From: Leptospira biflexa
Lineage (GTDB): Bacteria; Spirochaetota; DYNZ01
Reading direction: 5' to 3'
DNA length: 64,000 bases
Assembly (NCBI GenBank): GCA_020720805.1
Contig: DYNZ01000004.1
Location: 19,103 to 83,102 of the forward strand
Shown here: in pieces, positions 2,448 to 51,232 of the stretch
Layout of the letters: each line of letters opens with the position of its first letter
How positions within the stretch are numbered: position 1 is the first letter of the stretch
Position numbers and translations under genes: made by a program
The notes under the pieces: generated by a model
Told to the model about the DNA's origin: nothing
What the model saw: the letters and a program-made list of their open reading frames with translations, nothing else
Database searches by the model: none

Positions 2448-2870
2448 ATGGCTGCAAAGAGTGATATTCCAAATAGTGTCATTGGGGAAGGCTCTGTTTT
2501 TGAGGGCAAATTCTACATCAGCGGATCTTTACGAGTCGACGGAAAGTTTGAAGGTGAGATCGAAACAGATGAAGATATGATCATTGGCGACACCGGAAAG
2601 GTAAAGACCAATATTCGAGCTAAGAGGGTGATCGTTTCAGGAACATTGATTGGCAATATTGAAGCCACAGAAGAGGTCAGATTGCTACGCAATGGGAAAG
2701 TCATGGGTAATACCACTGCTCCGATGATTCAAATTCAGGAGGGGGTGATGGCTCAGGGAGAAATAAAAATTACTGGCAATGCCGGCTTCAAGGATGATAT
2801 CAAACGAATCATTGAGCAGGATTACAGTAGTGGTCAGATTATTGATTTTGATGCGGCGAATGCCCGATAA
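2448..2870 (+). CDS. Bactofilin (DUF583 polymer-forming cytoskeletal protein), paralog 1.
   Basis: Right-handed beta-helix bactofilin repeats: VIGEGSVFEGKFYISGSLRVDGKFEGEIET...GDTGKVKTNIRAKRVIVSGTLIGNIEATEEV. Length 140 aa. Confidence 0.8.
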   Translation: MAAKSDIPNSVIGEGSVFEGKFYISGSLRVDGKFEGEIETDEDMIIGDTGKVKTNIRAKRVIVSGTLIGNIEATEEVRLLRNGKVMGNTTAPMIQIQEGVMAQGEIKITGNAGFKDDIKRIIEQDYSSGQIIDFDAANAR

Positions 2871-2972
2871 GGGCTTAGACATTTTATAAATTTTTTTATT
2901 TATTTTTGATCTTTGCGGAGACGATGATAAAAGAGATGCATCATCTCCAAAAGATACCCTTGGATTTTTAGC

Positions 2973-4259
2973 ATGATTAAAAAAAAGTATAATATTTGGG
3001 AACAATTTTTTAAGAATTTTTCTGTAACCTACATTGGCTATGGAAAGTTTTTATACTATCATCGTAATCCCCGCACAAAGAAAATTAAATATGGAAAAAT
3101 TGATTTTACCACTCCAAAAGCGAAATTGGCACTCTCCTCCTTGATTAGTCTTTCGATCGTTTCCTCTTTTCTTTTTGTGCAGTTTCGTAAAGATACGCTA
3201 ACGGCAAAACCACATAAAACGGAAAATTCTCCTAAGATATCCCATGATAAAGATTCACAAATTACCCCCTTATTATCAGCAGAGGAGCTTCACCCAGAGG
3301 AAAAAAAGACAATCACCGGACTCATTTTAGAAGAGTCGCGTAAACTTCTGGATGCCTCAAAGCCTGGGGAGGAGTCCAGGCCAGAGCCTAAGGATAAGGG
3401 CAATACTTTAGACCAGGAAAAGCTCAAATCCCTGTCAGGTAAATCTGATATTGCTACCAGTATCGACGATGAGGATACGGAAAAATTAAAACGAAGTACT
3501 TTATTATCCGATGACACTCGCTTTATTCCTGAGCAGGAAAACAAAAAGGTAAAAATTTACCAATATACTGTCAAAAAGGGCGATAGTGTTGGATCATTGG
3601 CTCGTAAGTTTGGGATTTCTGCGGATACCATCGGAGGAAGTTCCGGAAAAATCATGAATATGGATGAAATCTGGCCTGGTTTGACGCTAAGTATTCCCAG
3701 CCGCGATGGAATTCTGTACAAGATGAAAAAAGGAGAGACATTAGCTCACATCGCGAATCGTTACGGTGTAGCATTGGCAAAAATTCTTGCCGTCAACGCA
3801 TTTGATGACCCTGATAATATTCCTGTAGGCAACCTTATTTTTCTTCCTGATATCAAGCCAAGAAACCTGTTTACAGGATTTCTCTGGCCTGTTGGGGGTA
3901 GAATTACCAGTCTGTATGGTTGGCGGCGTCACCCATTTGTAAATAGTTACCATTTTCATGAAGGTCTTGACCTATCAGCTCCCTATGTAAGCGTCAGAGC
4001 AGCAAAATCTGGAAAAGTTACCTTTTCTGGTTGGATGGGATCTTATGGTATGGTTGTCATTTTATCGCATCCGAACAACTACAAGACAATGTACGCTCAT
4101 AATTCCAGACTCTATGTTCGCGTAGGACAGTATGTTCGTCAGGGGCAGGTAATTTCGCAATCCGGCAGCACTGGGCGAAGTACAGGACCACATGTGCATT
4201 TTGAGATTTGGAAAAATAATCGACCCATGAACCCACTCGCATTACTCCGTAAAAGATAG
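2973..4259 (+). CDS. LysM-domain M23 family metallo-endopeptidase (NlpD/Csd-like). It has an N-terminal TM segment and a low-complexity linker.
   Basis: Two LysM-like modules (YTVKKGDSVGSLARKFGIS and YKMKKGETLAHIANRYGVALAKILAVN). C-terminal M23 motifs HEGLDL...MYAHNS...GSTGRSTGPHVHFEI. Confidence 0.8.
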   Translation: MIKKKYNIWEQFFKNFSVTYIGYGKFLYYHRNPRTKKIKYGKIDFTTPKAKLALSSLISLSIVSSFLFVQFRKDTLTAKPHKTENSPKISHDKDSQITPLLSAEELHPEEKKTITGLILEESRKLLDASKPGEESRPEPKDKGNTLDQEKLKSLSGKSDIATSIDDEDTEKLKRSTLLSDDTRFIPEQENKKVKIYQYTVKKGDSVGSLARKFGISADTIGGSSGKIMNMDEIWPGLTLSIPSRDGILYKMKKGETLAHIANRYGVALAKILAVNAFDDPDNIPVGNLIFLPDIKPRNLFTGFLWPVGGRITSLYGWRRHPFVNSYHFHEGLDLSAPYVSVRAAKSGKVTFSGWMGSYGMVVILSHPNNYKTMYAHNSRLYVRVGQYVRQGQVISQSGSTGRSTGPHVHFEIWKNNRPMNPLALLRKR

Positions 4260-4270
4260 GAAAATTTTTT

Positions 4271-4582
4271 ATGGAGCAGTTTCCGGCAAAAACCGGCGAT
4301 TCTATCATTTCAAATCAGATCGAGATTCCGCAAGGGGAGAAAATTGCCATCACCGACCATGGATGGGAAAGCCGTGGTCTGGAATTGGTCTGTCCACAAT
4401 GTGCCGTTTCCTCCCAGGATGTACTATTGCGGCCACGCAAAAAAAGAGGAAAGGACAGAGAGGGAATTGAAAGAGAGTATATCATCGGGTATCAGCCCTT
4501 TTCGTTATGTCCTCAATGTAAAATCGAAATCTCCGGATCAGAATTTTTTTGTTTTCCTTTTCTGCTATCCGCGATCGAATAA
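4271..4582 (+). CDS. Small zinc-ribbon hypothetical protein.
   Basis: 103-aa ORF with two CPQC motifs about 40 aa apart. Weak SD (aggaaaa) upstream. Its stop lies 3 nt before the TTG start of the next gene. Confidence 0.4.
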   Translation: MEQFPAKTGDSIISNQIEIPQGEKIAITDHGWESRGLELVCPQCAVSSQDVLLRPRKKRGKDREGIEREYIIGYQPFSLCPQCKIEISGSEFFCFPFLLSAIE

Positions 4583-4585
4583 GCC

Positions 4586-5884
4586 TTGGAATTAAATCAG
4601 GAGCAAAAAAAGGTCGTCTATTCGCCGATTGGCTGGAAACGTCTGCTAGCTTGCGCCGGATCCGGAAAAACAACCGTCCTCATCCAACGGGTTTTGTACC
4701 TCATATCCCAAGGGATGAAACCCAGCCGGATATTACTTATCACATTTACCCGCAAATCTGCACGGGAGATGCGATTACGGCTGCGTAGAATGCTGCCTGA
4801 TGGTTCCGAGTATCCCTGGGCTGGTACCTTCCACTCCCTGGCATTTCAGTTATTGCGCAGTTATAACACGATAGCCGATTACTCTCTGCTAAAGGATGGG
4901 GAGGAGGAGGAACTCAAAATGAGCATCGCTTCTCTCTATCAAAATAAGTTATTGTACATCCCTTATGATCTTTTAGCGAACATTAGAAAGCAAAGCGGAC
5001 TGCCTCTTTTTGTGAAGAATATTTATGAAGATTTCTCGCAGAAATTTCATGAGACCAAACGAACGCGCAAACAGATTGGTTTCGATGATTTTTTGCCACT
5101 TCTGTTGAAAGAATGGCAAGAAAATGAAAGTTATAGAAAAGATTTTTCAAATAGATTTGATGCAATTCTAGTAGATGAGTTCCAAGATACCAATCCCGAG
5201 CAGATCGAATTTTTGCAGAAATTTTTAATGCGAAGTCACGATTTTCTTGCTGTTGGTGATGATTGGCAGGCTATATATGGATTTCGTAATGCGGATATGA
5301 CAGTGTTAACCAGGTTCGAAAAATTTTTTCCAAACAGCAAAACATTTTTTTTAACCATGAACTATCGCTCAACTCCTCAAATTATACAAACAGCGAATCG
5401 AGTTTTGGCGTTAAATCGTGAAAAGGTGAAAAAAAAGATGAAGTCTGTTCTACCTGCCGGTTCTGAGGTCCATTTTTATTTTTTTGAGAATAGGAATGAG
5501 TTGCAAAAATGGATATCGGATGCCTGGGTTATGGGAACCAAAATCAGTAAAGAAAAGAAAACAATTTTATGCAGAACAAATGTGCAGTGCAATTTTTTTC
5601 TTCCCGCAGAATCGGAGACGGTAAGTGCTATGACGATCCATCAGGCAAAAGGTTTGGAATTTGATCATGTGCTTGTGGCCGCTTTGGAAGACCATGTTTT
5701 CCCGCATAGGGATGCGGATATCGAGGAAGAACGCCGTCTGCTATTCGTGGCACTTTCCCGGGCAAAAAAAAAGCTGGAGATCGGAATTATAAAAAGCCAT
5801 TTGTCGGTAGAAAAGCAGTTTTCGCGCGAATTGGGTTACGGAATCGTTAACCCTTTTGCATACTCTGAATTTGCTGAATCATAG
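4586..5884 (+). CDS. Compact UvrD/PcrA-like superfamily-1 helicase. It is 432 aa, and the 1B/2B accessory domains appear largely absent.
   Basis: All SF1 motifs sit in compressed order: Q (LNQEQKKVV), I (AGSGKTT), Ia (TFTRKSAREM), II (VDEFQD), III (GDDWQAIYGFRNAD), IV (NYRST), V (IHQAKGLEFDHV), VI (EERRLLFVALSRAKKKL). TTG start. Confidence 0.7.
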   Translation: MELNQEQKKVVYSPIGWKRLLACAGSGKTTVLIQRVLYLISQGMKPSRILLITFTRKSAREMRLRLRRMLPDGSEYPWAGTFHSLAFQLLRSYNTIADYSLLKDGEEEELKMSIASLYQNKLLYIPYDLLANIRKQSGLPLFVKNIYEDFSQKFHETKRTRKQIGFDDFLPLLLKEWQENESYRKDFSNRFDAILVDEFQDTNPEQIEFLQKFLMRSHDFLAVGDDWQAIYGFRNADMTVLTRFEKFFPNSKTFFLTMNYRSTPQIIQTANRVLALNREKVKKKMKSVLPAGSEVHFYFFENRNELQKWISDAWVMGTKISKEKKTILCRTNVQCNFFLPAESETVSAMTIHQAKGLEFDHVLVAALEDHVFPHRDADIEEERRLLFVALSRAKKKLEIGIIKSHLSVEKQFSRELGYGIVNPFAYSEFAES

Positions 5885-7391
5885 TCTGAATCTCATCAGG
5901 ATAAATTCCCTGTTGCTGAGCCCCTTCTAATACCCGTAAAGCTTCCTGGTAATTTCCCTGGTTGGCGTACGAGACTCCGGCATATAACCAGGCATCGTGG
6001 TAGCTGGTTTTGAGGTCGATAGCTTTTTCCATCTGGGCTGCTGCCTCGTGGAGGTTACCTAAACGGTAGTTCAATAAACCAAGTTTAAAAAAGATATCAG
6101 GTTCGCCAGGAAAATGAAGAAGAACTTTTTTATAGGTCTGTAAGGCAGCTTCATTTTTCTCCAAATGGAGCAAGGTATCGCTATAAAATAATAGACTTTC
6201 TGTATCGTCTGGGTTAATGGAGATGGCTTTTTCCAGATCCTGTAAAGCTTTTGAGAAATTTTTATTTTTATACGCCTCCATACCACTATTTTTGATCGTT
6301 GCAAATTCCTCCGCACTCTGCTGCAACTGCAGTTCAGGCTCTGAGGAAAGATCTTTGTCGAGCTCTGAGGTGATATCCAGATCGTCGTTCAGGGGAAAAT
6401 TAGCCTCTTTCGTGGTGATGGCAGGTTGCATATTCGCATCCAGGTCAATTGAGTCCGCATCAATATCGAGATCAATGTCATCCTCGGTTAATTCACCGAG
6501 ATCATGGAACTCCTCTGCCTGGCCAATCGCTTCAGGATTGGCTACTTTTTTTTGCTCCGATGCAAAAACAGGGTCAGGTAGCTGCTCTCTATCATTAGAC
6601 TCCACAATTCTTTCCGAACTTTGCAGCGCTTCCAGCTCTTCCATCGCGTTTTCATAGGCATCTGCCAGGTGATCAATTTCCTCTGCTAAAATACCAAAAT
6701 CATCATTGTTATAGTAATAGGTTCTGGTGTTCCACTTGCCCATGTTAATGTCATGGAGCGTGGTAAGCAGAATTTTTACAGGAGAAACAGTGTAATGTAT
6801 AAGGATGAAGTAGAGAGCGATGGCCAGGAGAAGAAAAAGGAGAGCACCCAGGGCTATTTTTAGCCAAAAAAAAGGAGCTACCTGTGAGAAACTGCTGATA
6901 GCGTTCTGATTTTCAAAAAGGATTCCAAGGATCCAATGCTTGTCATGGCTGGCACCTGAAATCGAGAGATAAATACGGCTCGAATAGCTGGCAGTTAAAG
7001 AGCTGTAACCTTTTGCGGCAATCTCAGATTGGAGCTGCTTCCAGAATAGGGCATTTTTATCATTCTTGAAATTTTCAGGAAGAGTCATCTGGCCAGATTG
7101 GGCTGCAAGGTCACCCTTCTGGTCAAAAATGATAAAATCATAAACTCCGAGTTTTAGGAGTACCTTTTTTAACTCTTCCTGTCTATCAGGAGAAATCGCG
7201 TTATTTTTCCAAAGCCCCTCTTTTTTGAGTATTGGTCGAATTCTATCCTGAACAATGTGCGGAAGTGATTCCGAATACAGCGCAGCGTATGCCTGAAGAG
7301 AATTTTTACGAATGCTCATACCAATGAGAATAAAAGTAGTCATTAGGATTATGGCAAAAATAAGATGAAAAAGGAACAATTTCGATTTCAT
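5847..7391 (-). CDS. Membrane-anchored sensor-like protein with a C-terminal TPR array. Architecture is TM1, periplasmic-like domain, TM2, HAMP-like helix, acidic low-complexity linker, then TPR repeats.
   Basis: Two hydrophobic segments (aa ~8-27 and ~180-200). A HAMP-like segment VSPVKILLTTLHDINMGKW...GILAEEIDHLADAYENAMEEL. A D/E-rich linker. C-terminal TPR-like repeats (ALQDLEKAISINPDD..., YKKVLLHFPGEPD..., AQMEKAIDLKTSYHDAW...). Confidence 0.65.
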   Translation of the reverse strand: MKSKLFLFHLIFAIILMTTFILIGMSIRKNSLQAYAALYSESLPHIVQDRIRPILKKEGLWKNNAISPDRQEELKKVLLKLGVYDFIIFDQKGDLAAQSGQMTLPENFKNDKNALFWKQLQSEIAAKGYSSLTASYSSRIYLSISGASHDKHWILGILFENQNAISSFSQVAPFFWLKIALGALLFLLLAIALYFILIHYTVSPVKILLTTLHDINMGKWNTRTYYYNNDDFGILAEEIDHLADAYENAMEELEALQSSERIVESNDREQLPDPVFASEQKKVANPEAIGQAEEFHDLGELTEDDIDLDIDADSIDLDANMQPAITTKEANFPLNDDLDITSELDKDLSSEPELQLQQSAEEFATIKNSGMEAYKNKNFSKALQDLEKAISINPDDTESLLFYSDTLLHLEKNEAALQTYKKVLLHFPGEPDIFFKLGLLNYRLGNLHEAAAQMEKAIDLKTSYHDAWLYAGVSYANQGNYQEALRVLEGAQQQGIYPDEIQTMIQQIQSMQKG

Positions 7392-7605: not shown

Positions 7606-7947
7606 GTGGCTCTGGATTCAAAAAAAAAGGGAAATGTTGTTATTGTTTACCTGAAGGGCAGGCTTGACGTTCATCTATCTGCTGATGTTGAAAGTGACTT
7701 AAATGTGCTGATTGAGAAGGAAAAGGGTTCGAATTTTCTTTTAAATCTAACAGATGTGGAATATATGAGTTCCAGTGGATTGCGTATTTTTGTGGCAACT
7801 ATGAGGATTTTGAAAGAGCATGGACGGCAGTTAAAGCTTTGTTCATTGAATAGCGCTGTCAAAAAGATTTTCGAAGTTGTAGAATTGATGGATATGTTTG
7901 ATGTAGAGGAAACGGAAGAGGCTGCGCTCAAATCTTTTGGGGTTTAG
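7606..7947 (+). CDS. STAS-domain anti-sigma factor antagonist (SpoIIAA/RsbV-like).
   Basis: 113 aa. Conserved phosphorylatable region LTDVEYMSSSGLRIFV. GTG start with GGAGG 7 nt upstream. Confidence 0.75.
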   Translation: MALDSKKKGNVVIVYLKGRLDVHLSADVESDLNVLIEKEKGSNFLLNLTDVEYMSSSGLRIFVATMRILKEHGRQLKLCSLNSAVKKIFEVVELMDMFDVEETEEAALKSFGV

Positions 7948-7996: not shown

Positions 7997-8722
7997 TTAC
8001 CAGTTGTCGGATTGCCTATCGGTATACTTTGTTCTGACAATCGCTGTTACATCATCTAGATAAACATAACTCCACTGGTCATTCGTTGTAATGTTTCCTG
8101 GATTGAAAACAAAGGAGACAATTCTTAATTTGCTCTTTTGATTGAGAAAATGGTCTTGTTGTTTAACATGTGAGGGAATTTTAATCGATAATTTACGCCA
8201 GCCGCGAAAATTCAATTGACCGAATGTCAGATAATGGGTGTTATCATCGCTATCTTTTACAATAATCGATAGGCGGCCTGAAAACCCTTTTCCGTACGCC
8301 CAGAGATTCAAACCATAGCAAAATTCATCGATTATAATTGGTTTTATGGGGTAAATGGCCACAGCATCCTCTTTTTTGCCGAAAACCTTAATACCCAGAT
8401 ATTTTTTTGAATCCTTAATCGGGGCTGGATAGTCAGAACGGATTTTGATGTAGGCTTGTTTGTGGCCTTCAAAACGAAAATTTACCTGGTTTGCACCATA
8501 ATCCCCCGATTCAAAGTCCTCCAGGGGCATTTCCAGGTAAATTTTACGGTCTGCTTCCCCTTTTAGATCGAGAGGGGTAAAATTTTCCTCTTTAAATAAT
8601 ACATTTTCGTCGGTTTTTCCGGTTGAACTTTTCGTTGTTTCTGTATTCTGGCCAAATCCTGTTTCCAAAATGGAGAGGGTGAGTACCAATGCAGCGCCCA
8701 GGAAGAGAGCAGTTTTTTTCAT
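7997..8722 (-). CDS. Secreted protein with an N-terminal signal peptide. Its C-terminal region resembles spirochaetal flagellar filament outer-layer (FlaA) family proteins.
   Basis: Signal peptide MKKTALFLGAALVLTLSILETGFG. By recall, the segments GLNLWAYGKGFSGRLSIIVKDSDDNTHYLTFGQLNFRGWRKLSIKIP and KLRIVSFVFNPGN...YVYLDDVTAIV resemble the FlaA motifs LDFDGWRELVWENP and IIRFVGFQI...DFVTYFKDVKLIY. No search was run. Confidence 0.5.
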   Translation of the reverse strand: MKKTALFLGAALVLTLSILETGFGQNTETTKSSTGKTDENVLFKEENFTPLDLKGEADRKIYLEMPLEDFESGDYGANQVNFRFEGHKQAYIKIRSDYPAPIKDSKKYLGIKVFGKKEDAVAIYPIKPIIIDEFCYGLNLWAYGKGFSGRLSIIVKDSDDNTHYLTFGQLNFRGWRKLSIKIPSHVKQQDHFLNQKSKLRIVSFVFNPGNITTNDQWSYVYLDDVTAIVRTKYTDRQSDNW

Positions 8723-8836: not shown

Positions 8837-9634
8837 ATGAAATTATCAAAAAAGCGGGAAAATCGTCGGATTTTTCGCGATATTTCACCTAAACTAAATC
8901 GTTTCTCCGGGATTTATCCTGTTTCTTCCGTATTGCAGTTTTTTTTTCCCGCATTATGTCCCATTTGTCACCAAAGCCAAACCTGGGGAACGCTTGGTAT
9001 TTGCCAGAGTTGCGCTGCGGAGTTGGATCTCATTCTTCATTCGCAGGAGAAGCAGGAAAATTGTTTGCGTTGCGGCCTGCCTAGAACTGATTTGGACCAG
9101 GGCAATGGTTTTGATCAGGGGTGTTATCAATGTTCCAAGCGAAATATATACTATGATTCCTTTCATTACTTTTTTTATCATCGGCCGATCCTGAAACAGG
9201 CGATCCATGATTTGAAATTTCGCAAAAACCGTTATGTGGTAAAAATGTTGAGTCCATCTTTTTGGAAATCTGCTGTTGCGCGGTTTCAATGGGATGTGGA
9301 TTTTTTTACGACTATTCCTGTAAGTAAAAAGAGCGCAGCCATGCGAGGTGGAAATCAGACTGAGTTTCTCTTTGCCGGGTTGGAGCATTTTTTTCCTAAA
9401 GAGAGTATTTTGGAAAAACAGGAAGGACGTCATTTGCGTACCTATGGGCGAGTATCCCGTTTTTTTACTGTTTCTGAAGCATACCGTATTCAAGAAGGGA
9501 AAAATATCGTCGGAAAACGAATTCTTTTAGTAGATGACTTCAGTACCAGTGGGGCAACGATAAATTACTGTTCATGGTTATTGAAAGAGAAGCAGGCCAG
9601 TCATGTGATTGCCCTGGTTTTTATGCAGCACTAA
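8837..9634 (+). CDS. ComF family protein (phosphoribosyltransferase-domain competence protein ComFC-like) with an N-terminal Cys4 zinc finger.
   Basis: CPICHQ...CQSC zinc-finger motif. C-terminal PRTase motif ILLVDDFSTSGATI. Confidence 0.7.
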   Translation: MKLSKKRENRRIFRDISPKLNRFSGIYPVSSVLQFFFPALCPICHQSQTWGTLGICQSCAAELDLILHSQEKQENCLRCGLPRTDLDQGNGFDQGCYQCSKRNIYYDSFHYFFYHRPILKQAIHDLKFRKNRYVVKMLSPSFWKSAVARFQWDVDFFTTIPVSKKSAAMRGGNQTEFLFAGLEHFFPKESILEKQEGRHLRTYGRVSRFFTVSEAYRIQEGKNIVGKRILLVDDFSTSGATINYCSWLLKEKQASHVIALVFMQH

Positions 9635-9869: not shown

Positions 9870-10202
9870 ATGGAAACAAGAGTAGAGGGCAACCTTGATA
9901 TTCTCATTTTGGATGGTCGCATTGATCAGGATATGACTGATACATTAGAACGCTATCTTCAGGAGTATCTGGATACTAAACGGTTTAAACTTATTGTGGA
10001 CATGACTGCAGTTTTACATATTTGTAGCTCTGCTCTGGGGGTGCTTGTTGCAACTAAGAAAAAATTTCAAAAATACGACGGAGATATAAAATTAATTCTA
10101 ATTAACGAAAATTTAAAGCAGTTGTTTGAGATAACTATGCTGAATAAGGTTTTTGAGATATTTGAAGACCAGAAAATGGCGATTAACTCCTTTGATGATT
10201 GA
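9870..10202 (+). CDS. STAS-domain anti-sigma factor antagonist, paralog 2.
   Basis: 110 aa, typical SpoIIAA-like length and layout (LDILILDGRIDQ...VDMTAVLHICSSALGVLV). Confidence 0.75.
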   Translation: METRVEGNLDILILDGRIDQDMTDTLERYLQEYLDTKRFKLIVDMTAVLHICSSALGVLVATKKKFQKYDGDIKLILINENLKQLFEITMLNKVFEIFEDQKMAINSFDD

Positions 10203-11275: not shown

Positions 11276-11497
11276 ATGATATCAGAGCAAAAACAGAAAA
11301 TGTTAGATTTGTATAATCAGGGCATGAATCATTACAAGGAAAGAAATTGGTCTAAGGCCAAGGACTTTTTTTCTCAGGCGCTTACGGTAGTTCCGAATGA
11401 CGGCCCAAGCAAATTGTATGTTTATAGATGTGAACAGTATGAAAAAACATCTCCGCCAGCGGATTGGAATGGTGTTTTTATTATGACTACGAAATAG
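11276..11497 (+). CDS. Small TPR-like hypothetical protein.
   Basis: 73-aa ORF with one TPR-like helix pair (YNQGMNHYKERNWSKAKDFFSQALTVVPND). It lies between the polyprenyl synthase and bactofilin 2. Coding status is uncertain. Confidence 0.35.
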   Translation: MISEQKQKMLDLYNQGMNHYKERNWSKAKDFFSQALTVVPNDGPSKLYVYRCEQYEKTSPPADWNGVFIMTTK

Positions 11498-11508
11498 GAG
11501 AGATTGCG

Positions 11509-11892
11509 ATGGGTAAAAAATTAAGAGCTGATCTGGCAGAAGTATTAATGGATCATGGCGGAAGCATCGCAACCATTTTAGGAGAGAAAACCGAATTTGA
11601 AGGTGTTATGGAATTTGAAAATTCCATCCAGATTGATGGGATTTTTAAAGGGGAGATCAAAACACCTGGGCTGGTTGTGATTAATGATGGTGCGTTGATT
11701 AAGGCCAATATCGATGCATCGATCGTCATTCTCGCAGGTGAGGTGGAGGGAAATATCCGGGCAACGGATAAGGTGATTATCCTCTCGGGCGGTAAATTAA
11801 AAGGAAATATCAAAACGGCAAAATTGAAGATATCTGATGGGGTGGTCTTTGATGGTAATTGCGAGATGATTAAATGGGAAAAAAGCGCATAA
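11509..11892 (+). CDS. Bactofilin, paralog 2.
   Basis: Bactofilin repeats (GEKTEFEGVMEFENSIQIDGIFKGEI...NIDASIVILAGEVEGNIRATDKVIILSGGKLKGNI). ATG at 11509 is preferred over the upstream in-frame 11464 start because an AGGAGAG RBS lies 7 nt upstream. Confidence 0.8.
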   Translation: MGKKLRADLAEVLMDHGGSIATILGEKTEFEGVMEFENSIQIDGIFKGEIKTPGLVVINDGALIKANIDASIVILAGEVEGNIRATDKVIILSGGKLKGNIKTAKLKISDGVVFDGNCEMIKWEKSA

Positions 11893-18538: not shown

Positions 18539-20124
18539 ATCTTATTGCTGGAATTTTTGTCCTCAGTTTAAGTATTCTCATTCATGAACTGGGTCATTTG
18601 TTATTTGGCAGATTGGTCGGAATTCGCGCCCGGGTTTTTTCCTTTGGTTATGGCAAGGGAATCTTAAAAAAAACAATCGGTGATACAACCTACCAGATTA
18701 CTGCGATACCGCTGGGGGGATATGTTCAATTTTACGGAGATGATATTACCCAACGCGACCAGGCCAAACCAGGTGATTTTTTTTATGTCGGGCCATTGAA
18801 AAGAATCATTCCCGTAATTGGCGGTCCCCTCATGAATTTGGTACTTGGATTGATTATTTTCGCTTTTTTTAATTTTGTGGGAAGTGAGAAGCCTTCATCT
18901 AGGATTTTTGTTCCCAGGGAGACAGCCATCCCCGACAAACAAACCGGTTTGATGAAAAAAATTGAAAGTCCAGCTTACAAGGCAGGACTTCGTAACGGCG
19001 ATAAAATCGTTGAAATCAATGGAAAAAAGATTTCAACCTATGCAGATATGAAAGCCGCAGTTATTTTTAACTCAAGCAAGATGATGGATGTCACATTCAT
19101 TAGGGATGGTAAGGAGCGAACAGTTAAGGTGGAATCGATTATCCCCAATGAAGGAGATTTTCCAATTATTGGAGTACAGCCTTATTTTTATTTTGGAATT
19201 CAAAAAATTATTCCGTCAGGGCCAGCATTTCATAGCGGATTTTTAGAAAAGGATATTATCGTTTCTATAGACGGAATCGTTCATAACTCCTTAGAAGAGA
19301 TGATTCGGTATTTGCAACAGAAGCAAATCGGCAAAGTGAAGATAGAAATCGAGAGATCTGGTAAAAGATTAACAAGGGAACTCATTCTTGAATCCAAAAA
19401 TAAAATAATTTTTCAGAATCCTGTTTTGTCCTCTGTTCCAGGATTTTCTTTGGATAATCAATCGATTATTTATTCAGATAGCCTTGCCAGTGCCATTAAC
19501 AAAAAAATAATAAAAATTAATGGCAATATCGTAGCAAATGAAGCTGATTTGCAGAAAATTATCCAGGCGAATCGCGGTAAAAAGGTTTCTATTGAAACGG
19601 GAGCAGGTCAATACACTGTGGTTTTATCATCTGAAAAAATTAATTTTGCAGGAATCTCGTTCCAGATAGCAAAGGTTGATTCTGAAATGGTCAAATATGG
19701 CATCATGGCATCGATCGGTATGGCTTTTATAGATGCATGGGATTTTGTTATCCTGAATTTGAAAGGAATAAAGAAATTATTTTCAGGAGAATTGTCCGTT
19801 CAAGAGAATTTATCTGGCCCAATCCGAATCGCCAAAATGGCCGGTGATGTTGCCGAGCACGGATGGGGGCCGTTATTTCTATTTCTGGCTCAAATCTCGG
19901 TTGTACTCATGATTATGAACCTATTGCCCATTCCTGTTGTGGATGGGGGACATATTCTGTTTTTTCTGGTTGAGGCCGCAATGGGAAAACCTCTGAACCA
20001 GAAATTGCAGGAAAAAATAATGGGTTTTGGAGTATTCTTTTTAATTTCGCTTGGTGTATATGTCATATTCAATGACATATTATCCCTAGAATTTATTAAA
20101 AATATTATTCACCTGTTTGGATAG
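18535..20124 (+). CDS. rseP: RIP zinc metalloprotease RseP (site-2 protease) with tandem PDZ domains.
   Basis: HELGHLLFGR HExxH motif in TM1, a PDZ-rich middle, and a C-terminal LLPIPVVDGGHI motif. It is 529 aa, longer than the typical ~450 aa. Confidence 0.85.
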   Translation: MNLIAGIFVLSLSILIHELGHLLFGRLVGIRARVFSFGYGKGILKKTIGDTTYQITAIPLGGYVQFYGDDITQRDQAKPGDFFYVGPLKRIIPVIGGPLMNLVLGLIIFAFFNFVGSEKPSSRIFVPRETAIPDKQTGLMKKIESPAYKAGLRNGDKIVEINGKKISTYADMKAAVIFNSSKMMDVTFIRDGKERTVKVESIIPNEGDFPIIGVQPYFYFGIQKIIPSGPAFHSGFLEKDIIVSIDGIVHNSLEEMIRYLQQKQIGKVKIEIERSGKRLTRELILESKNKIIFQNPVLSSVPGFSLDNQSIIYSDSLASAINKKIIKINGNIVANEADLQKIIQANRGKKVSIETGAGQYTVVLSSEKINFAGISFQIAKVDSEMVKYGIMASIGMAFIDAWDFVILNLKGIKKLFSGELSVQENLSGPIRIAKMAGDVAEHGWGPLFLFLAQISVVLMIMNLLPIPVVDGGHILFFLVEAAMGKPLNQKLQEKIMGFGVFFLISLGVYVIFNDILSLEFIKNIIHLFG

Positions 20125-46010: not shown

Positions 46011-48413
46011 TTAGTCTATCATGTAATTAACATAATTGGCAAATATTTTTTTATAATACTCTCTGGTTTCCAGAAATGGTATTGTTTCCCCTAGTAACAT
46101 GACGTTTTCCGAACTGTAACGTCGTTCCCAAATTATTGCAGTACCTGGTCCAGCATTATAGGCACTGCTAAGCCAGAGAAGATTTCCTCCAAACCGGCGG
46201 TTTTGCTGTCTGATATAATTAGTTGCGGAGAGGATGGAAATTTCTGGATCATTCAGGTTGGGGGGATCAAAGCCGAGTCTTTTTGCGATCGGTTGCCCTG
46301 TTAGGGGCATTAATTGCATCAAACCTATTGCCCCCGCAGAGGACGAGATACGTTCGATAAAGGCTGATTCTGCTTTCATGATCGCCCAAATTAACTCTGG
46401 ATCCACATGAAATCTGGATGAAGCAGATTCTACGATATTTTTATATGGCTTGGCAAAGGCGCTCTGCTTAAGAATTTTTTTCAATGTTCCTGAACATATT
46501 CGATAATTTCCATGGGTTTTGAAAATTTTTAGTGCTTGCAATAAGCTCTGATCGGCATCGGAAAGATGGCTACTCAGGCTCATGAGCAAAAGATGATGCT
46601 GTTCTTTGGAGAGATTTCTTTCTAGGATATCATCGGCTATTTGGTATAATCCAATTTTTGCAAAGATTCCAGCATCAATCGAGGGAGAGTTTTTTCCCTC
46701 AAAGATTTTAGACAAATCGGGCAAAAGAATATCATTTTGGGGGCAATGTTGTTTGTATGAGAATGGGTAGGAAATGATCTCCTGCTGTAACCCTGGCATT
46801 GCAATAGCCCTGTTAACATCATCATTCAGATAGTGGAATAGAGGTTTACTTGCAAGGAGGATGTTGAGTTTTTCCAAATAGCGAACGGTACTATCAGATA
46901 AGGTAAGGTTGCTTTTTTGCAGAATAGGGTTGGTTTTATCTTTTAGCAAGCTTGTAAATTTTTTTCTATTGTTGTTCTGAAGGTAGATTGCAGCCAATAG
47001 TGAATAGTAACTGTAATGATCTCGCTGTAGTAAAGGGTAAAGATAGTAGCTAAGATTTTCGAAACGGTTGGCTCCAAGCGAGATTGCTGACCAGAATAAA
47101 AGTCGTTCTGTTAGCTGATGAGGAGGAATATTTTTCCATAACTCCTTGCTAAAGGAGGCGGCTTTGATCCAATCCTGGTTTTTTATAAAATGAAAAATAT
47201 GGTGCCAATAGACGTTATCAATATATGGACGGCTGCTTCTATCTTTCAGAAATATTTGAAAACTCTCATGGAGGATTGAATTTGAGTTAATCGGTCCGCG
47301 TGAAGCTAATGTGACCAGTAACTGCAATTTTGTGAAAAATTCACCCTTGTAAGAGTGTTTATTGAATAGGGTGAGTATATCGTTTGCTTGTGAATAGAAA
47401 AGTCTATATTTTTTTTTCTGCAATAATCTTCGTTGACTATTGATAAATATTGTTCCGGCTTCTTGCTGATTTTTCTCCCAAATTTTTTCTGCCAATACAG
47501 CTGGCCAAGTTGTGTCGATAAAAAAATTTCTCTGCTCTAAACGGGCTTGCAAAAATAGTATATCCTGGTCTCGAATAGCAATACTATCAAGAATTTGTTT
47601 CGCTTCATTTTTTAATCCTGATTGAAACAAAATAATGGCAGCTTGGCAAAGAATGGATGGCTCCTGGCGAAATTCTTTGGAATTTTTCGCAATTTCACGG
47701 GACGCAATCTTTTTCATCCAGAATGGGTTTTCGCCCTGTAGTATTATTCGGTATTGATCGACTGCTTTTTGAGATTGTCCTTGCTTGTTATAAATTGTGG
47801 CAAGTTTTAGGCGATTCACGGTAAAACGTTCTGCCAGATGATGAAATATCGCCGATGCTTTTTCGTATTGTTTTTCAAAAATTAATTTTTCGCCAGTTAG
47901 ACGCTGAAATTCATTTGATAGAAACGGGTTTTCCACATCAGAAAAAAGATTGATTACAGCCATGCTGCCGTTGTACAAGCCAAAATCCTGAAGAATATCG
48001 CTGATATAGATAGCGGCGTAAGGTGCCAGGGGAGAAAGTGTAGTTGTTCTCATGTATGTTACAATTTCCTGATTTGCGATACGCTTTGGTGTAGAGTCTC
48101 CCTTTTGGGCGGATGCAGATTTCAGAAAAGCGAACAGTGCTTCCTTCTTTTGGTTTTGTTTCCATAAGGCGTAACCTTCCAGAAAGGATAAGGCGTAATG
48201 TTTGGATGACTGTCTTTTTAGGGCTGCGGCAACCGGTATCCACTGCTCCTGCTTTACCCAGGATCTGATTTTCGGGTTTAAATAGATTTTCTGCCACTCT
48301 TGAAAATCGATAGCTTTGATTTCACCTCGCCCTGAACAACTTGCGGATGAAAGGAAGAGCAAAAGCGTTAAAAGCACCATAAAAAAGGTTGATTGTAAGG
48401 TAGTTTGATTCAT
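46011..48413 (-). CDS. Soluble lytic murein transglycosylase (Slt70-like): a superhelical N-terminal domain plus a C-terminal SLT domain.
   Basis: Signal peptide. Long alpha-helical repeat region. C-terminal SLT catalytic motifs ES.F......S.AGA.GLMQLMP and AYNAGPG. 800 aa. Confidence 0.8.
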   Translation of the reverse strand: MNQTTLQSTFFMVLLTLLLFLSSASCSGRGEIKAIDFQEWQKIYLNPKIRSWVKQEQWIPVAAALKRQSSKHYALSFLEGYALWKQNQKKEALFAFLKSASAQKGDSTPKRIANQEIVTYMRTTTLSPLAPYAAIYISDILQDFGLYNGSMAVINLFSDVENPFLSNEFQRLTGEKLIFEKQYEKASAIFHHLAERFTVNRLKLATIYNKQGQSQKAVDQYRIILQGENPFWMKKIASREIAKNSKEFRQEPSILCQAAIILFQSGLKNEAKQILDSIAIRDQDILFLQARLEQRNFFIDTTWPAVLAEKIWEKNQQEAGTIFINSQRRLLQKKKYRLFYSQANDILTLFNKHSYKGEFFTKLQLLVTLASRGPINSNSILHESFQIFLKDRSSRPYIDNVYWHHIFHFIKNQDWIKAASFSKELWKNIPPHQLTERLLFWSAISLGANRFENLSYYLYPLLQRDHYSYYSLLAAIYLQNNNRKKFTSLLKDKTNPILQKSNLTLSDSTVRYLEKLNILLASKPLFHYLNDDVNRAIAMPGLQQEIISYPFSYKQHCPQNDILLPDLSKIFEGKNSPSIDAGIFAKIGLYQIADDILERNLSKEQHHLLLMSLSSHLSDADQSLLQALKIFKTHGNYRICSGTLKKILKQSAFAKPYKNIVESASSRFHVDPELIWAIMKAESAFIERISSSAGAIGLMQLMPLTGQPIAKRLGFDPPNLNDPEISILSATNYIRQQNRRFGGNLLWLSSAYNAGPGTAIIWERRYSSENVMLLGETIPFLETREYYKKIFANYVNYMID

Positions 48414-49667: not shown

Positions 49668-50120
49668 ATGGCATTAAGTAGAACATCTTCAGAAATGGTA
49701 AATAGCTCTATCGGAGAGGACTCCTTCTTCATGGGAAGATTCCATATCAACGGATCTCTCCGGGTGAATGGACGGTTCGAGGGAAAAACGTTGCAGGCTG
49801 AGCAGTTATATGTTGGCGCAACCGGAAAGATCAAAACGAATATTCGCGCTGTTTCCGTGATTGTCGAGGGAATGATCATAGGCAATGTAGAAGCCAGCAG
49901 CCGAGTTATGCTTTTGCCGACAGCCCGCATTCTGGGAAATATTAAGACTCCGGAATTGATAATCCAGAATGGGGTAATCCTCGAAGGGCAGGTTACCATA
50001 ACTCCAAGCCAGGATAGTTCAGCAAAGGAGATGATTGAATCTGAGTTTGGTGATGATTTTATTCCTCAGGTCTCCCTTTTTTCTGAATATCATGATCCGA
50101 AAAAACAGAAAAAGAGTTAA
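49668..50120 (+). CDS. Bactofilin, paralog 3.
   Basis: Bactofilin repeats (SIGEDSFFMGRFHINGSLRVNGRFEGK...TGKIKTNIRAVSVIVEGMIIGNVEASSRV). The stop overlaps the pdxA start (TAATG). Confidence 0.8.
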   Translation: MALSRTSSEMVNSSIGEDSFFMGRFHINGSLRVNGRFEGKTLQAEQLYVGATGKIKTNIRAVSVIVEGMIIGNVEASSRVMLLPTARILGNIKTPELIIQNGVILEGQVTITPSQDSSAKEMIESEFGDDFIPQVSLFSEYHDPKKQKKS

Positions 50121-51232
50121 TGAACGAATCTATGCAACCCCATCCAAGAAAGAGCTCCGGGATTCCTGTTATCGGAATCACTGCTGGCGATCCTGGAGGT
50201 ATCGGCCCAGAGGTGGTTGCCAAGGCTCTTGAAAATTTAAAAAATAGTGGGAGAACAGGTAAAAAGGGGAGCCTTCCCTGGGATTTTATTCCTGTAATTC
50301 TGGGTGACTCACTTTTTTTTGAGTCCTTTCTATCCAACAATCATGATCTTTTCAAAATCCTAAAAAAATTTGATTTAGGAAAAATGGCAGGGGCTCTTGA
50401 GGTTTTATTGCGGAGCGGCAGGGGTATCTTTCTGGATCTAGGCAACTCTTTAGAGCACAAAACCATAGGAAAAAGTACGGACGAAAATGCCAGGGCATCC
50501 TATTCCTACTTCCGTACTGCGGTAGAATTGGATCAAAAGGGTTTCCTGGATGGCATTGTCACAGGTCCGGTTAATAAGGGTGCGATTAATGGAGCGGGAA
50601 TTCCTTTTGTAGGGCACACGGAAGAGTTTATTCGTCTCATCTCTGATCGGGAGCCGGTACGTCCCTATATGCTTATGCATAGTCATGTCATTAATGTCAT
50701 TCTGTTAACGACACACCATCCGGTTCGAGATATAGAAAAAATTTTGTCCCCTGATCATAGTTATGAGGCTGTCCAGGCGGCAGCAGCATTTTTACGCATG
50801 ATCCATAAAAAAGAGCCGCTCATCGCGTTTTTGGGAATTGATCCCCATGTCGGGGATAAGGGAGCAATTGGAACGATTGATCATACTTTTTCTATCCCGC
50901 TGATCCAAGAGATGAATAAAAGGGGATTGGCTGTGGAAGGACCATTCGCGGCTGATAGCTTTTTTTCAAAAAAAAATCTTGAAAAATATAATCTTATCAT
51001 TTCGGCCTACCACGATCAGGGATTGATCCCTTTCAAAATGTTGAGTTTTGGAAAAGGGGTGAACGTTACCCTGAACTTGCCCCTGCGGCGTACTTCGCCA
51101 GATCACGGAACTGCCTACGAGCTTGCCGGAACCGGTAGCGCTGATGCTGGCAGTATGGTAGAGGCAATCCAGCTCTGCCGGCTCTGGATCCGAGCTGAAA
51201 AGAGCAATCCCGTAATTGGACAAAGTGAGTAA
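50120..51232 (+). CDS. pdxA: 4-hydroxythreonine-4-phosphate dehydrogenase.
   Basis: IGITAGDPGGIGPEV and HTEEF...H.. metal-binding motifs. 370 aa with a short N-terminal insertion. Confidence 0.85.
   Translation: MNESMQPHPRKSSGIPVIGITAGDPGGIGPEVVAKALENLKNSGRTGKKGSLPWDFIPVILGDSLFFESFLSNNHDLFKILKKFDLGKMAGALEVLLRSGRGIFLDLGNSLEHKTIGKSTDENARASYSYFRTAVELDQKGFLDGIVTGPVNKGAINGAGIPFVGHTEEFIRLISDREPVRPYMLMHSHVINVILLTTHHPVRDIEKILSPDHSYEAVQAAAAFLRMIHKKEPLIAFLGIDPHVGDKGAIGTIDHTFSIPLIQEMNKRGLAVEGPFAADSFFSKKNLEKYNLIISAYHDQGLIPFKMLSFGKGVNVTLNLPLRRTSPDHGTAYELAGTGSADAGSMVEAIQLCRLWIRAEKSNPVIGQSE

Follow-up and report, generated by a model that had tools for sequence, protein, structure and literature searches.

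The locus described here raises the question whether four closely spaced genes form one functional module or two units that happen to adjoin. In a 64,000-nt stretch of contig DYNZ01000004.1 (assembly GCA_020720805.1, filed under Leptospira biflexa; contig positions 19,103 to 83,102, forward strand), hereafter the window, positions 2448 to 5884 encode a bactofilin, a LysM/M23 endopeptidase, a small zinc-ribbon-like protein and a compact helicase of the UvrD type. The reading that we favor, with a confidence somewhat better than even, is that of two two-gene units, bactofilin with M23 peptidase and zinc-ribbon protein with helicase, which lie juxtaposed and are probably co-transcribed in one narrow lineage of uncultured spirochaetes. 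We infer that no functional link joins the two units, and a four-part module appears, from the sequences compared, to be without support outside that lineage.

All four genes are read from the + strand. The bactofilin gene (2448..2870, 140 aa), partner of the M23 gene, is followed by an A/T-rich spacer of 102 nt (2871..2972, +) that holds no terminator-like T-run, then by the gene of a peptidase with two LysM domains and one M23 domain (2973..4259, 428 aa), by a four-cysteine zinc-ribbon-like open reading frame (ORF; 4271..4582, 103 aa, isoelectric point (pI) 5.2) and by the gene of a compact superfamily 1A (SF1A) helicase with a TTG start (4586..5884, 432 aa, pI 9.15). The string ends at a convergent gene for a membrane protein with tetratricopeptide repeats (TPR) on the − strand (5847..7391, 514 aa), whose 3′ end overlaps that of the helicase gene by 38 nt. 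The ORF list reproduced the four same-strand genes and the gaps of 102 nt (bactofilin to M23), 11 nt (M23 to zinc-ribbon) and 3 nt (zinc-ribbon to helicase) that the initial annotation had given, and all four of its gene identifications are right, the zinc ribbon as a putative one.

Under a longest-ORF model of the window, 47 of the 58 genes lie on the + strand, and same-strand neighbors are separated by a median of 15.5 nt, with gaps of at most 3 nt in 13 and at most 11 nt in 18 of 44 pairs. Short gaps and a common direction are thus the background of this window, so that tight spacing alone says little on shared function; in compact genomes, tight operon spacing is by itself no sign of it. 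A scan for promoters and terminators returned counts at shuffle expectation and is therefore uninformative on operon boundaries, beyond the fact that no + strand terminator-like site was found inside the four-gene string. Co-transcription of the four genes is nevertheless probable. Rfam gave no match in the window, ribosomal RNA included, at the gathering threshold or at E ≤ 1. An imperfect hairpin in the spacer between the first two genes (approximately 2913-2950, GGAGACGATGAT...ATGCATCATCTCC), the surrounding 125 nt of which fold at a z-score of −2.87, was dropped as a feature because it is unconserved: its sequence is not kept in the related loci L001, L003 and L098 (numbers refer to our set of 98 fetched loci), and no T-run stands behind it.

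The first two genes are readily placed. The bactofilin matches PF04519 in Pfam with an E-value of 2.4e-26 over residues 10-106, equivalent to profile positions 1-97 of 98, and shows the arrangement typical of the family, a central DUF583 beta-helical polymerization domain with short flanking tails; it resembles the solved structures of BacA (2n3d) and of a Thermus bactofilin (6ria). In the peptidase, Pfam found LysM in two stretches (E 5.4e-18) and Peptidase_M23 (PF01551, E 1.1e-33). The chain begins with a cytoplasmic tail of approximately 50 aa, rich in Lys and Arg, followed by a transmembrane (TM) segment at 52-70, a low-complexity linker, the two LysM domains (approximately 198-292) and the M23 domain (328-421). 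As the segment at 52-70 is the only hydrophobic one in a hydropathy-window analysis, which was used in place of a dedicated topology predictor, the protein is predicted to be bitopic. A motif scan found the catalytic motifs intact, with HxxxD as H329-EGL-D333 and HxH as H407-V-H409, and both are kept in the relatives. The nearest solved M23 domains are 3slu, 6muk, 5j1l and 4rny. None of the four proteins of the string has an equivalog-level match in NCBIfam, and no Leptospira protein occurs among the 120 best matches of the M23 peptidase.

Pairs of this kind have been described repeatedly. A bactofilin gene adjoins an M23 gene in 226 species, and LmdC is a bitopic protein whose cytoplasmic tail binds the bactofilin BacA (PMC10945521). 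Among spirochaetes, lbbD of L. biflexa adjoins the M23 gene LEPBI_I1430 (PMC10945521), Borrelia burgdorferi carries the pair bb0246-bbbG (PMC13393453), and in L. interrogans the adjacent genes LIMLP_13115 and LIMLP_13120 are both 1.5-fold down in biofilm (PMC11442865). The window pair shares the adjacency of bactofilin and M23 genes with BacA-LmdC of Hyphomonas neptunium and Rhodospirillum rubrum, with LbbD/LEPBI_I1430, with BB0246-BbbG and with CcmA-Csd1 of Helicobacter pylori. With the BacA-LmdC type it further has in common a bitopic peptidase with N-terminal cytoplasmic tail, TM helix and intact M23 domain, and a spirochaete host recurs as well. The window differs from those pairs in that its peptidase is equipped with two LysM domains as well as a long linker of low complexity; the bactofilin gene comes first and is set apart by 102 nt, whereas lmdC and bacA overlap; and the probable operon continues with two more genes.

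The pairing itself is conserved. Adjacent bactofilin and M23 genes were found in the window and in L001, L003, L098, L091 and L092, and the bactofilins encoded upstream of the M23 orthologs in these five loci are 61-74% identical to that of the window. The bactofilin-M23 pair is an established, widely conserved cell-shape module, of which the window provides one more spirochaete example; here the literature and the neighborhoods of the M23 orthologs bear out the initial annotation, which had recognized a shape module. By analogy with its family, the pair most likely operates in the manner of BacA-LmdC and LbbD. On the cytoplasmic side of the membrane, bactofilin polymers would recruit or position the peptidase via its N-terminal cytoplasmic tail, the LysM domains would keep it bound to the sacculus, and local cutting of the peptidoglycan by the endopeptidase would then set the curvature or helicity of the cell.

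What separates this pair from the two genes behind it is the comparison with the next-closest M23 proteins outside the lineage, P0143 in L091 (a 3.7-Mb contig) and P0140 in L092. With identities of 48-51% for M23 and 61-62% for the bactofilin, these two loci are as close to the window as the lineage members L003 and L098; within the lineage, M23 orthologs are 50-60% identical over their full length. In both, the bactofilin gene lies immediately upstream of the M23 gene, in a different context with rpsO-pnp-M16 upstream. Downstream of M23, Hexapep/GT4 genes or glyS follow instead, and a six-frame scan with hidden Markov models (HMMs) detected neither a zinc-ribbon gene nor the helicase in either locus. 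The existence of these pairs without the other two genes indicates that bactofilin and M23 travel as a unit, and that the break falls exactly at the boundary between the M23 and zinc-ribbon genes.

The second half of the string is dominated by the helicase. Pfam assigns residues 3-249 to UvrD-helicase (profile positions 1-271, E 2.1e-54) and a further part to UvrD_C (E 8.7e-29). The protein is a member of none of the NCBIfam equivalogs PcrA, UvrD, Rep, HelD and helicase IV; its bit scores stay far below the cut-offs (245 vs 911 for PcrA, 234 vs 965 for UvrD and 208 vs 951 for Rep). All SF1A motifs are present: Q7, GSGKT at 25-29, TFTRK at 53-57, DEFQD at 197-201, GDDWQAIYGFR at 224-234, NYRS at 259-262, TIHQAKGLEF at 350-359 and EEERRL...SRA at 380-393. 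Across 14 compact homologs, motifs Q, I, Ia, II, III, IV, V and VI show little or no variation. When aligned with PcrA (1pjr), residues 2-311 correspond to PcrA 11-337 and residues 341-399 to PcrA 554-617, so that approximately 215 PcrA residues (338-553, that is 2B and adjoining segments of 2A) are replaced by approximately 29. Domains 1A, 1B and 2A are retained, while 2B is absent, as it is in all compact homologs, and the C-terminal extension of roughly 100 residues found in canonical enzymes is missing too. An AlphaFold2 (AF2) model (pLDDT 82.4, pTM 0.79) gave PcrA, UvrD and Rep as best Foldseek matches, with TM-scores of approximately 0.8 when normalized to the query and 0.55 when normalized to the target. 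The initial annotation had named a minimal UvrD-like helicase, which the intact motifs and the match in fold and sequence to UvrD, PcrA and Rep confirm; it had also called the protein stripped to its motor core, which is apt for the missing 2B and C-terminal extension, but not for domain 1B, which is still there.

The compact form is not peculiar to this locus. About one quarter of the 120 best matches of the helicase are proteins of 390-490 aa with near-full coverage. Of the five best BLAST partners of each compact member, 97% overall are compact as well, where 25% would be expected; for full-length proteins, the five best include no compact one. The compact helicases are basic throughout, with pI values of 9.0-9.7. 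The nearest relatives, from metagenome assemblies, are 41-51% identical; a search of metagenome contigs with the single helicase returned mostly full-length relatives of 27-33% identity and no further members of the lineage. From these sequence relationships, the compact helicases present themselves as a coherent, widespread and uncharacterized subfamily without 2B, marked by GDDWQ in motif III.

The start of the gene merits attention, since one gene caller disagrees. The NCBI/Logan copy (P0125) has 432 aa, and the JGI call (P0001) has 371 aa and begins at M62, so that it lacks Walker A and the Q motif (window positions 4586-4771). We take the TTG to be the true start: homology to PcrA and to family members sets in at residue 2-3, upstream of the TTG stand in frame just GCC and, before that, a TAA stop, and the NCBI/Logan copy is of the same 432 aa. 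The JGI truncation is explained by a true start that is a TTG without Shine-Dalgarno sequence, and annotation pipelines may systematically truncate members of the compact subfamily in this way.

The shorter call and the TTG start could also be taken as signs of an artifact or of decay, with the helicase gene as the pseudogene of a truncated UvrD and the 103-aa ORF as a chance frame or a broken-off N-terminus; the small ORF has no family match and lies in frame with the helicase, with a single stop codon in between. We regard this as extremely improbable. The helicase motifs are invariant in the 14 compact homologs, the structural model is confident and the subfamily coherent, which also disposes of the suggestion that a pseudogenized UvrD fragment limited to this strain might be at hand. 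As for the small ORF, its cysteine pattern is kept at 22-35% identity in five loci, its frame relative to the helicase differs among relatives, and no compact homolog carries a Cys-rich N-terminal extension.

With regards to activity, the helicase is most likely an ATP-driven 3′-5′ translocase and helicase on single-stranded DNA, judging from its intact motifs and from two SF1A motors that likewise lack 2B. One is the natural PcrA^s (MPN340) of Mycoplasma pneumoniae, an active, ATP-dependent helicase (PMC3720892); the other is engineered Escherichia coli Rep without 2B, an activated monomer helicase (PMC13238157). PcrA^s, however, has 529 aa and is a recent, species-specific PcrA paralog, 47% identical to PcrA, whereas the window helicase, at 432 aa, is without the C-terminal extension as well and comes from a broad and old subfamily that is approximately 30-35% identical to the canonical enzymes over the core. 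The canonical UvrD, PcrA and Rep (1pjr, 2is1, 1uaa) share with it all SF1A motifs and the domains 1A, 1B and 2A, but UvrD and PcrA carry an autoinhibitory 2B and an RNA-polymerase-binding C-terminus, and it has neither.

The same boundary in the string is seen from the side of the helicase. Five distant compact helicases (L006, L007, L008, L089 and L090; 32-36% identical) were compared, and neither a bactofilin nor a zinc-ribbon gene was found near any of them. The neighborhoods in L007, L008, L090 and L089, the last from a Spirochaetota metagenome-assembled genome, are without bactofilin, M23 and Cys-rich ORF. Small ORFs beside the compact helicases of L089 and L008 were considered and rejected, as none is Cys-rich or related. 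The initial annotation had left a choice for the last two genes between an add-on to the bactofilin module and an unrelated coupled pair, and had proposed homolog neighborhoods as one means to decide. Outside the lineage, bactofilin-M23 occurs without the pair (L091, L092) and the compact helicase without bactofilin in five out of five loci, which favors the unrelated pair and speaks against the add-on there, even though the four genes do stay together within the lineage.

The zinc-ribbon-like protein is an orphan restricted to this lineage. It has two CxxC knuckles (41-44 and 80-83), and C41, C44, Y74, C80, C83, C94 and P96 are invariant in five sequences that are otherwise only 22-35% identical and variable in the linker between the knuckles. 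This invariance at such low identity shows the 103-aa ORF to be a real gene. Neither Pfam nor NCBIfam contains a matching family. HMMER, run exhaustively against 1.84 billion representative proteins, found five members of the family at E ≤ 1e-10; two further matches were repeat proteins and were rejected. A word-indexed search with the alignment recovered four of these members only, the fifth being added by HMMER, and all 98 fetched loci, when scanned with the HMM, revealed no hidden copies. The proteins are acidic throughout, with pI values of 4.8-5.8. Another Cys-rich ribbon protein, ComF-like and unrelated in sequence to the 103-aa protein, is encoded 3 kb downstream of the string (8837-9634); its N-terminus is a double zinc ribbon (PF18912) and its C-terminus a phosphoribosyltransferase.

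All five zinc-ribbon genes lie directly upstream of a compact helicase gene, at gaps of −10 to +24 nt. In the window, an AGGA that overlaps the M23 stop codon stands 9-10 nt upstream of the zinc-ribbon ATG, whereas the helicase TTG, 3 nt past the zinc-ribbon stop, has no Shine-Dalgarno sequence of its own. This arrangement fits a coupling of termination and reinitiation at the junction of zinc-ribbon and helicase genes. In the window, both ORFs lie in one reading frame with TAA-GCC between them. Read-through or a fusion of the two was considered and rejected, as the frames differ in L001, L004 and L098 and compact homologs with a Cys-rich N-terminus were not found.

Gene order and charge make it most likely that the acidic zinc-ribbon protein serves the basic helicase without 2B as a partner specific to this lineage. 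The helicase would be constitutively competent as a monomer, the autoinhibitory 2B being absent, and the co-translated acidic protein would act as lineage-specific adaptor, regulator or brake on it, taking over the targeting or control that normally comes from the missing parts or from accessory proteins. SF1A monomers are known to be activated by the accessory proteins MutL, PriC, RepD and Ku (PMC13238157). In the systems MutL-UvrD, PriC-Rep, RepD-PcrA and Ku-UvrD1, a dedicated partner targets or activates a UvrD-family motor, and in the window the candidate partner is encoded immediately upstream of the motor. The known partners, however, act largely by re-orienting 2B, which the window helicase lacks, and the zinc-ribbon protein is unrelated to MutL, PriC, RepD and Ku and has no detectable homolog outside the five loci. 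If the partnership holds, it would represent a minimal natural system for the targeting or control of an SF1A helicase without 2B and without the C-terminal RNA-polymerase-binding region. What is new at this locus is the pairing of a zinc-ribbon protein with a helicase lacking 2B, the bactofilin-M23 pair being already known.

The zinc-ribbon protein might instead belong to the first unit, as a cytoplasmic regulator or adaptor of the complex of M23 tail and bactofilin, with the helicase as merely the next gene. At least four of the five zinc-ribbon genes directly follow an M23 gene, and wherever the upstream gene is visible, the distance between the two is −4 to +35 nt. The charges would suit such an arrangement, the zinc-ribbon protein being acidic and the M23 tail rich in Lys and Arg, and the wider subfamily of compact helicases manages without a neighbor of this kind. 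We nevertheless consider it unlikely. The bactofilin-M23 pairs of L091 and L092, which are equally close, have no zinc-ribbon gene, and the helicase apparently relies for its translation on termination at the end of the zinc-ribbon ORF, given the TTG 3 nt after its stop and the missing Shine-Dalgarno sequence. Moreover, the fragment upstream of the zinc-ribbon gene in L004 is only weakly M23-like (25% identity) and lacks HxH. This 33-codon C-terminal fragment (L004 2-103) aligns weakly with the M23 C-terminus and has LTL at the position of HxH; it may stem from a degenerate, LytM-like and non-catalytic M23 protein or from an unrelated gene, and the contig ends there.

Within the lineage itself, the string is kept as a whole. 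L001 (helicase identity 51%) contains genes for electron transfer flavoprotein (ETF) and thiolase, followed by bactofilin, LysM/M23, the small Cys ORF, the compact helicase, the convergent TPR gene, STAS and flaA. L003 (43%) has the same string through STAS, with a SpoIIE-TPR gene in the convergent position, and its contig ends before flaA. L098 (42%) covers bactofilin, LysM/M23, small Cys ORF and helicase and is cut at both ends. In L004 (42%), whose upstream gene is cut after 33 codons, the zinc-ribbon gene is followed by the helicase, a convergent SpoIIE-TPR gene, STAS and flaA, and L005 (41%) is cut inside the helicase. The four-gene order is thus kept, with tight spacing, in all four loci in which the region is visible, while a fifth is cut. 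Between the window and L001, identities are 84% for STAS, 77% for thiolase, 74% for bactofilin, 60% for M23, 51% for the helicase, 38% for the TPR protein and 32% for the zinc-ribbon protein. Since the whole region is syntenic and not the four genes alone, conservation within the lineage cannot separate functional linkage from inherited order. The assignment of this thinly sampled lineage to the spirochaetes is based on flaA, the spirochaete flagellar sheath gene (7997-8722, − strand, PF04620), which lies 2 kb downstream of the string amid STAS genes and the TPR gene, and on the neighbors in related loci. The locus stands in a core-genome context with ETF, thiolase, flaA and, further on, rpsB-tsf.

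Several observations weigh against the division into two units. The junction between M23 and zinc-ribbon genes is as tight as that between zinc-ribbon and helicase genes (−4 to +35 nt across the lineage loci) and is kept down to 42% helicase identity, and no + strand terminator-like site separates the four genes. The zinc-ribbon gene occurs only where M23 and helicase genes adjoin, so that the data do not tell whether its partner is the helicase, or else bactofilin or the basic tail of M23, or both. The outgroups comprise five distant compact-helicase loci and two M23 loci only, and in one of the five, L006 (6001-9569), the compact helicase gene directly adjoins a LysM-LysM-M23 gene (36% identical), followed by a TPR gene; this is the sole M23 case among them. 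Finally, in four Parcubacteria-type (Patescibacteria) loci, L010, L023, L087 and L088, an M23 gene and a full-length UvrD/PcrA-like gene stand next to each other in divergent orientation, approximately 140-600 nt apart. These four come from a background set of at least 80 loci obtained by scanning genome contigs with the compact-helicase alignment, where 78 of 80 proved to be generic full-length UvrD/PcrA owing to the universal motif patterns chosen; in the other approximately 75 generic UvrD loci of the set, M23 was not found within 8 kb of the UvrD gene. The adjacency of M23 and helicase genes recurs in separate clades and may reflect either clade synteny or a real link, but is too thin for a functional claim.

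These observations are the substance of the case for a true four-part module, in which the zinc-ribbon protein and the helicase would work together with bactofilin and M23 in this lineage. In one version, the zinc-ribbon protein would bridge the basic peptidase tail or the bactofilin polymer to the DNA motor and so couple chromosome handling to local wall remodeling. Bactofilins of Myxococcus, which scaffold the ParABS machinery, offer a parallel. In favor of such a module stand the order bactofilin-M23-zinc ribbon-helicase in all visible lineage loci with its very short junctions, the string's lack of any + strand terminator-like site, a zinc-ribbon gene that is known only from the four-gene arrangement, and the helicase-M23 adjacency in L006 and the four Parcubacteria-type loci. 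To these can be added the cytoplasmic tail of M23, with its strong conservation across the lineage and its difference from the tail in L091 and L092. On the other hand, the flanking genes for ETF, thiolase, TPR/SpoIIE, STAS and FlaA are also conserved in the same loci, so that the linkage looks no different from ordinary lineage synteny, and equally close bactofilin-M23 pairs (L091, L092) do without both genes, as all five distant compact helicases do without bactofilin. The M23 protein of L006 is moreover of a different topological type, with an N-terminal signal or TM segment only and no cytoplasmic tail. In the literature searched, four papers name bactofilin, helicase and M23 together, none of them in title or abstract, and in the part of these that was covered a link between the two units was not found. 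On balance, we judge a four-part module to be distinctly unlikely.

The boldest form of this idea is that the zinc-ribbon protein physically links bactofilin and M23 to a constitutively active DNA motor without 2B, so that one machine coordinates nucleoid or DNA processing with site-specific remodeling of the peptidoglycan. We give it little credence. If it were true, the recurring M23-UvrD adjacency in L006 and in Parcubacteria-type genomes would count as a weak sign that helicases and cell-wall hydrolases are linked more widely, in a way not yet described.

The helicase could finally be seen as part of a defense system or as cargo of a mobile element, e.g., as a Gabija-like GajB with a small partner, or the genes as those of a prophage. 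It matches many GajB models of PADLOC, a model of a DRT-associated helicase and PHROG 1967 'DNA helicase', and GajB is likewise a short UvrD-like protein (8jqb, 499 aa). These matches, however, are to profiles of 430-725 positions and stem from general UvrD homology, and the direct similarity to the solved GajB is weak, with an E-value of 7.6e-11 over the N-terminal motif at residues 20-66 only. In Gabija, GajB lies beside GajA, an OLD-family ATPase/TOPRIM nuclease; GajA is absent here, so that the locus was rejected as a Gabija system. Among the five genes tested, neither a GajA/OLD-type nor any other PADLOC protein was found, the four neighbors of the helicase gene being without a PADLOC match, and the zinc-ribbon protein matched neither PHROG nor PADLOC. 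In addition, the region belongs to the conserved core genome common to the relatives, and its base composition has no island-like break. A role in defense or on a mobile element is thus highly improbable, and two adjoining two-gene units remain our preferred reading of the string.

Elsewhere in the window, two further bactofilin genes were noted. One (11509-11892, PF04519, E 3.4e-27) follows a 73-aa ORF with a single TPR (11276-11497) and lies upstream of rpsB, a layout that recurs in L001. The other (49668-50120, E 3e-24) overlaps with its stop the start of pdxA (50120-51232) by 1 nt, and near it an SLT lytic transglycosylase of 800 aa is encoded on the − strand (46011-48413). The window holds three bactofilins in total, in keeping with the multiple paralogs reported for Leptospiraceae.

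The convergent neighbor of the string (5847-7391) matches TPR families and, weakly, the N-terminal regions of sensor-kinase models. It is also present in L001, L003 and L004, and a larger version, in which SpoIIE (a PP2C phosphatase) is joined to TPR, occurs in L003, L004 and L005. Two STAS genes of the anti-sigma antagonist type (7606-7947 and 9870-10202) lie near it in the window. This combination of TPR and STAS genes suggests a partner-switching regulatory cluster, the phosphatase domain of which would have been lost, or be encoded elsewhere, in the window and in the lineage of L001.

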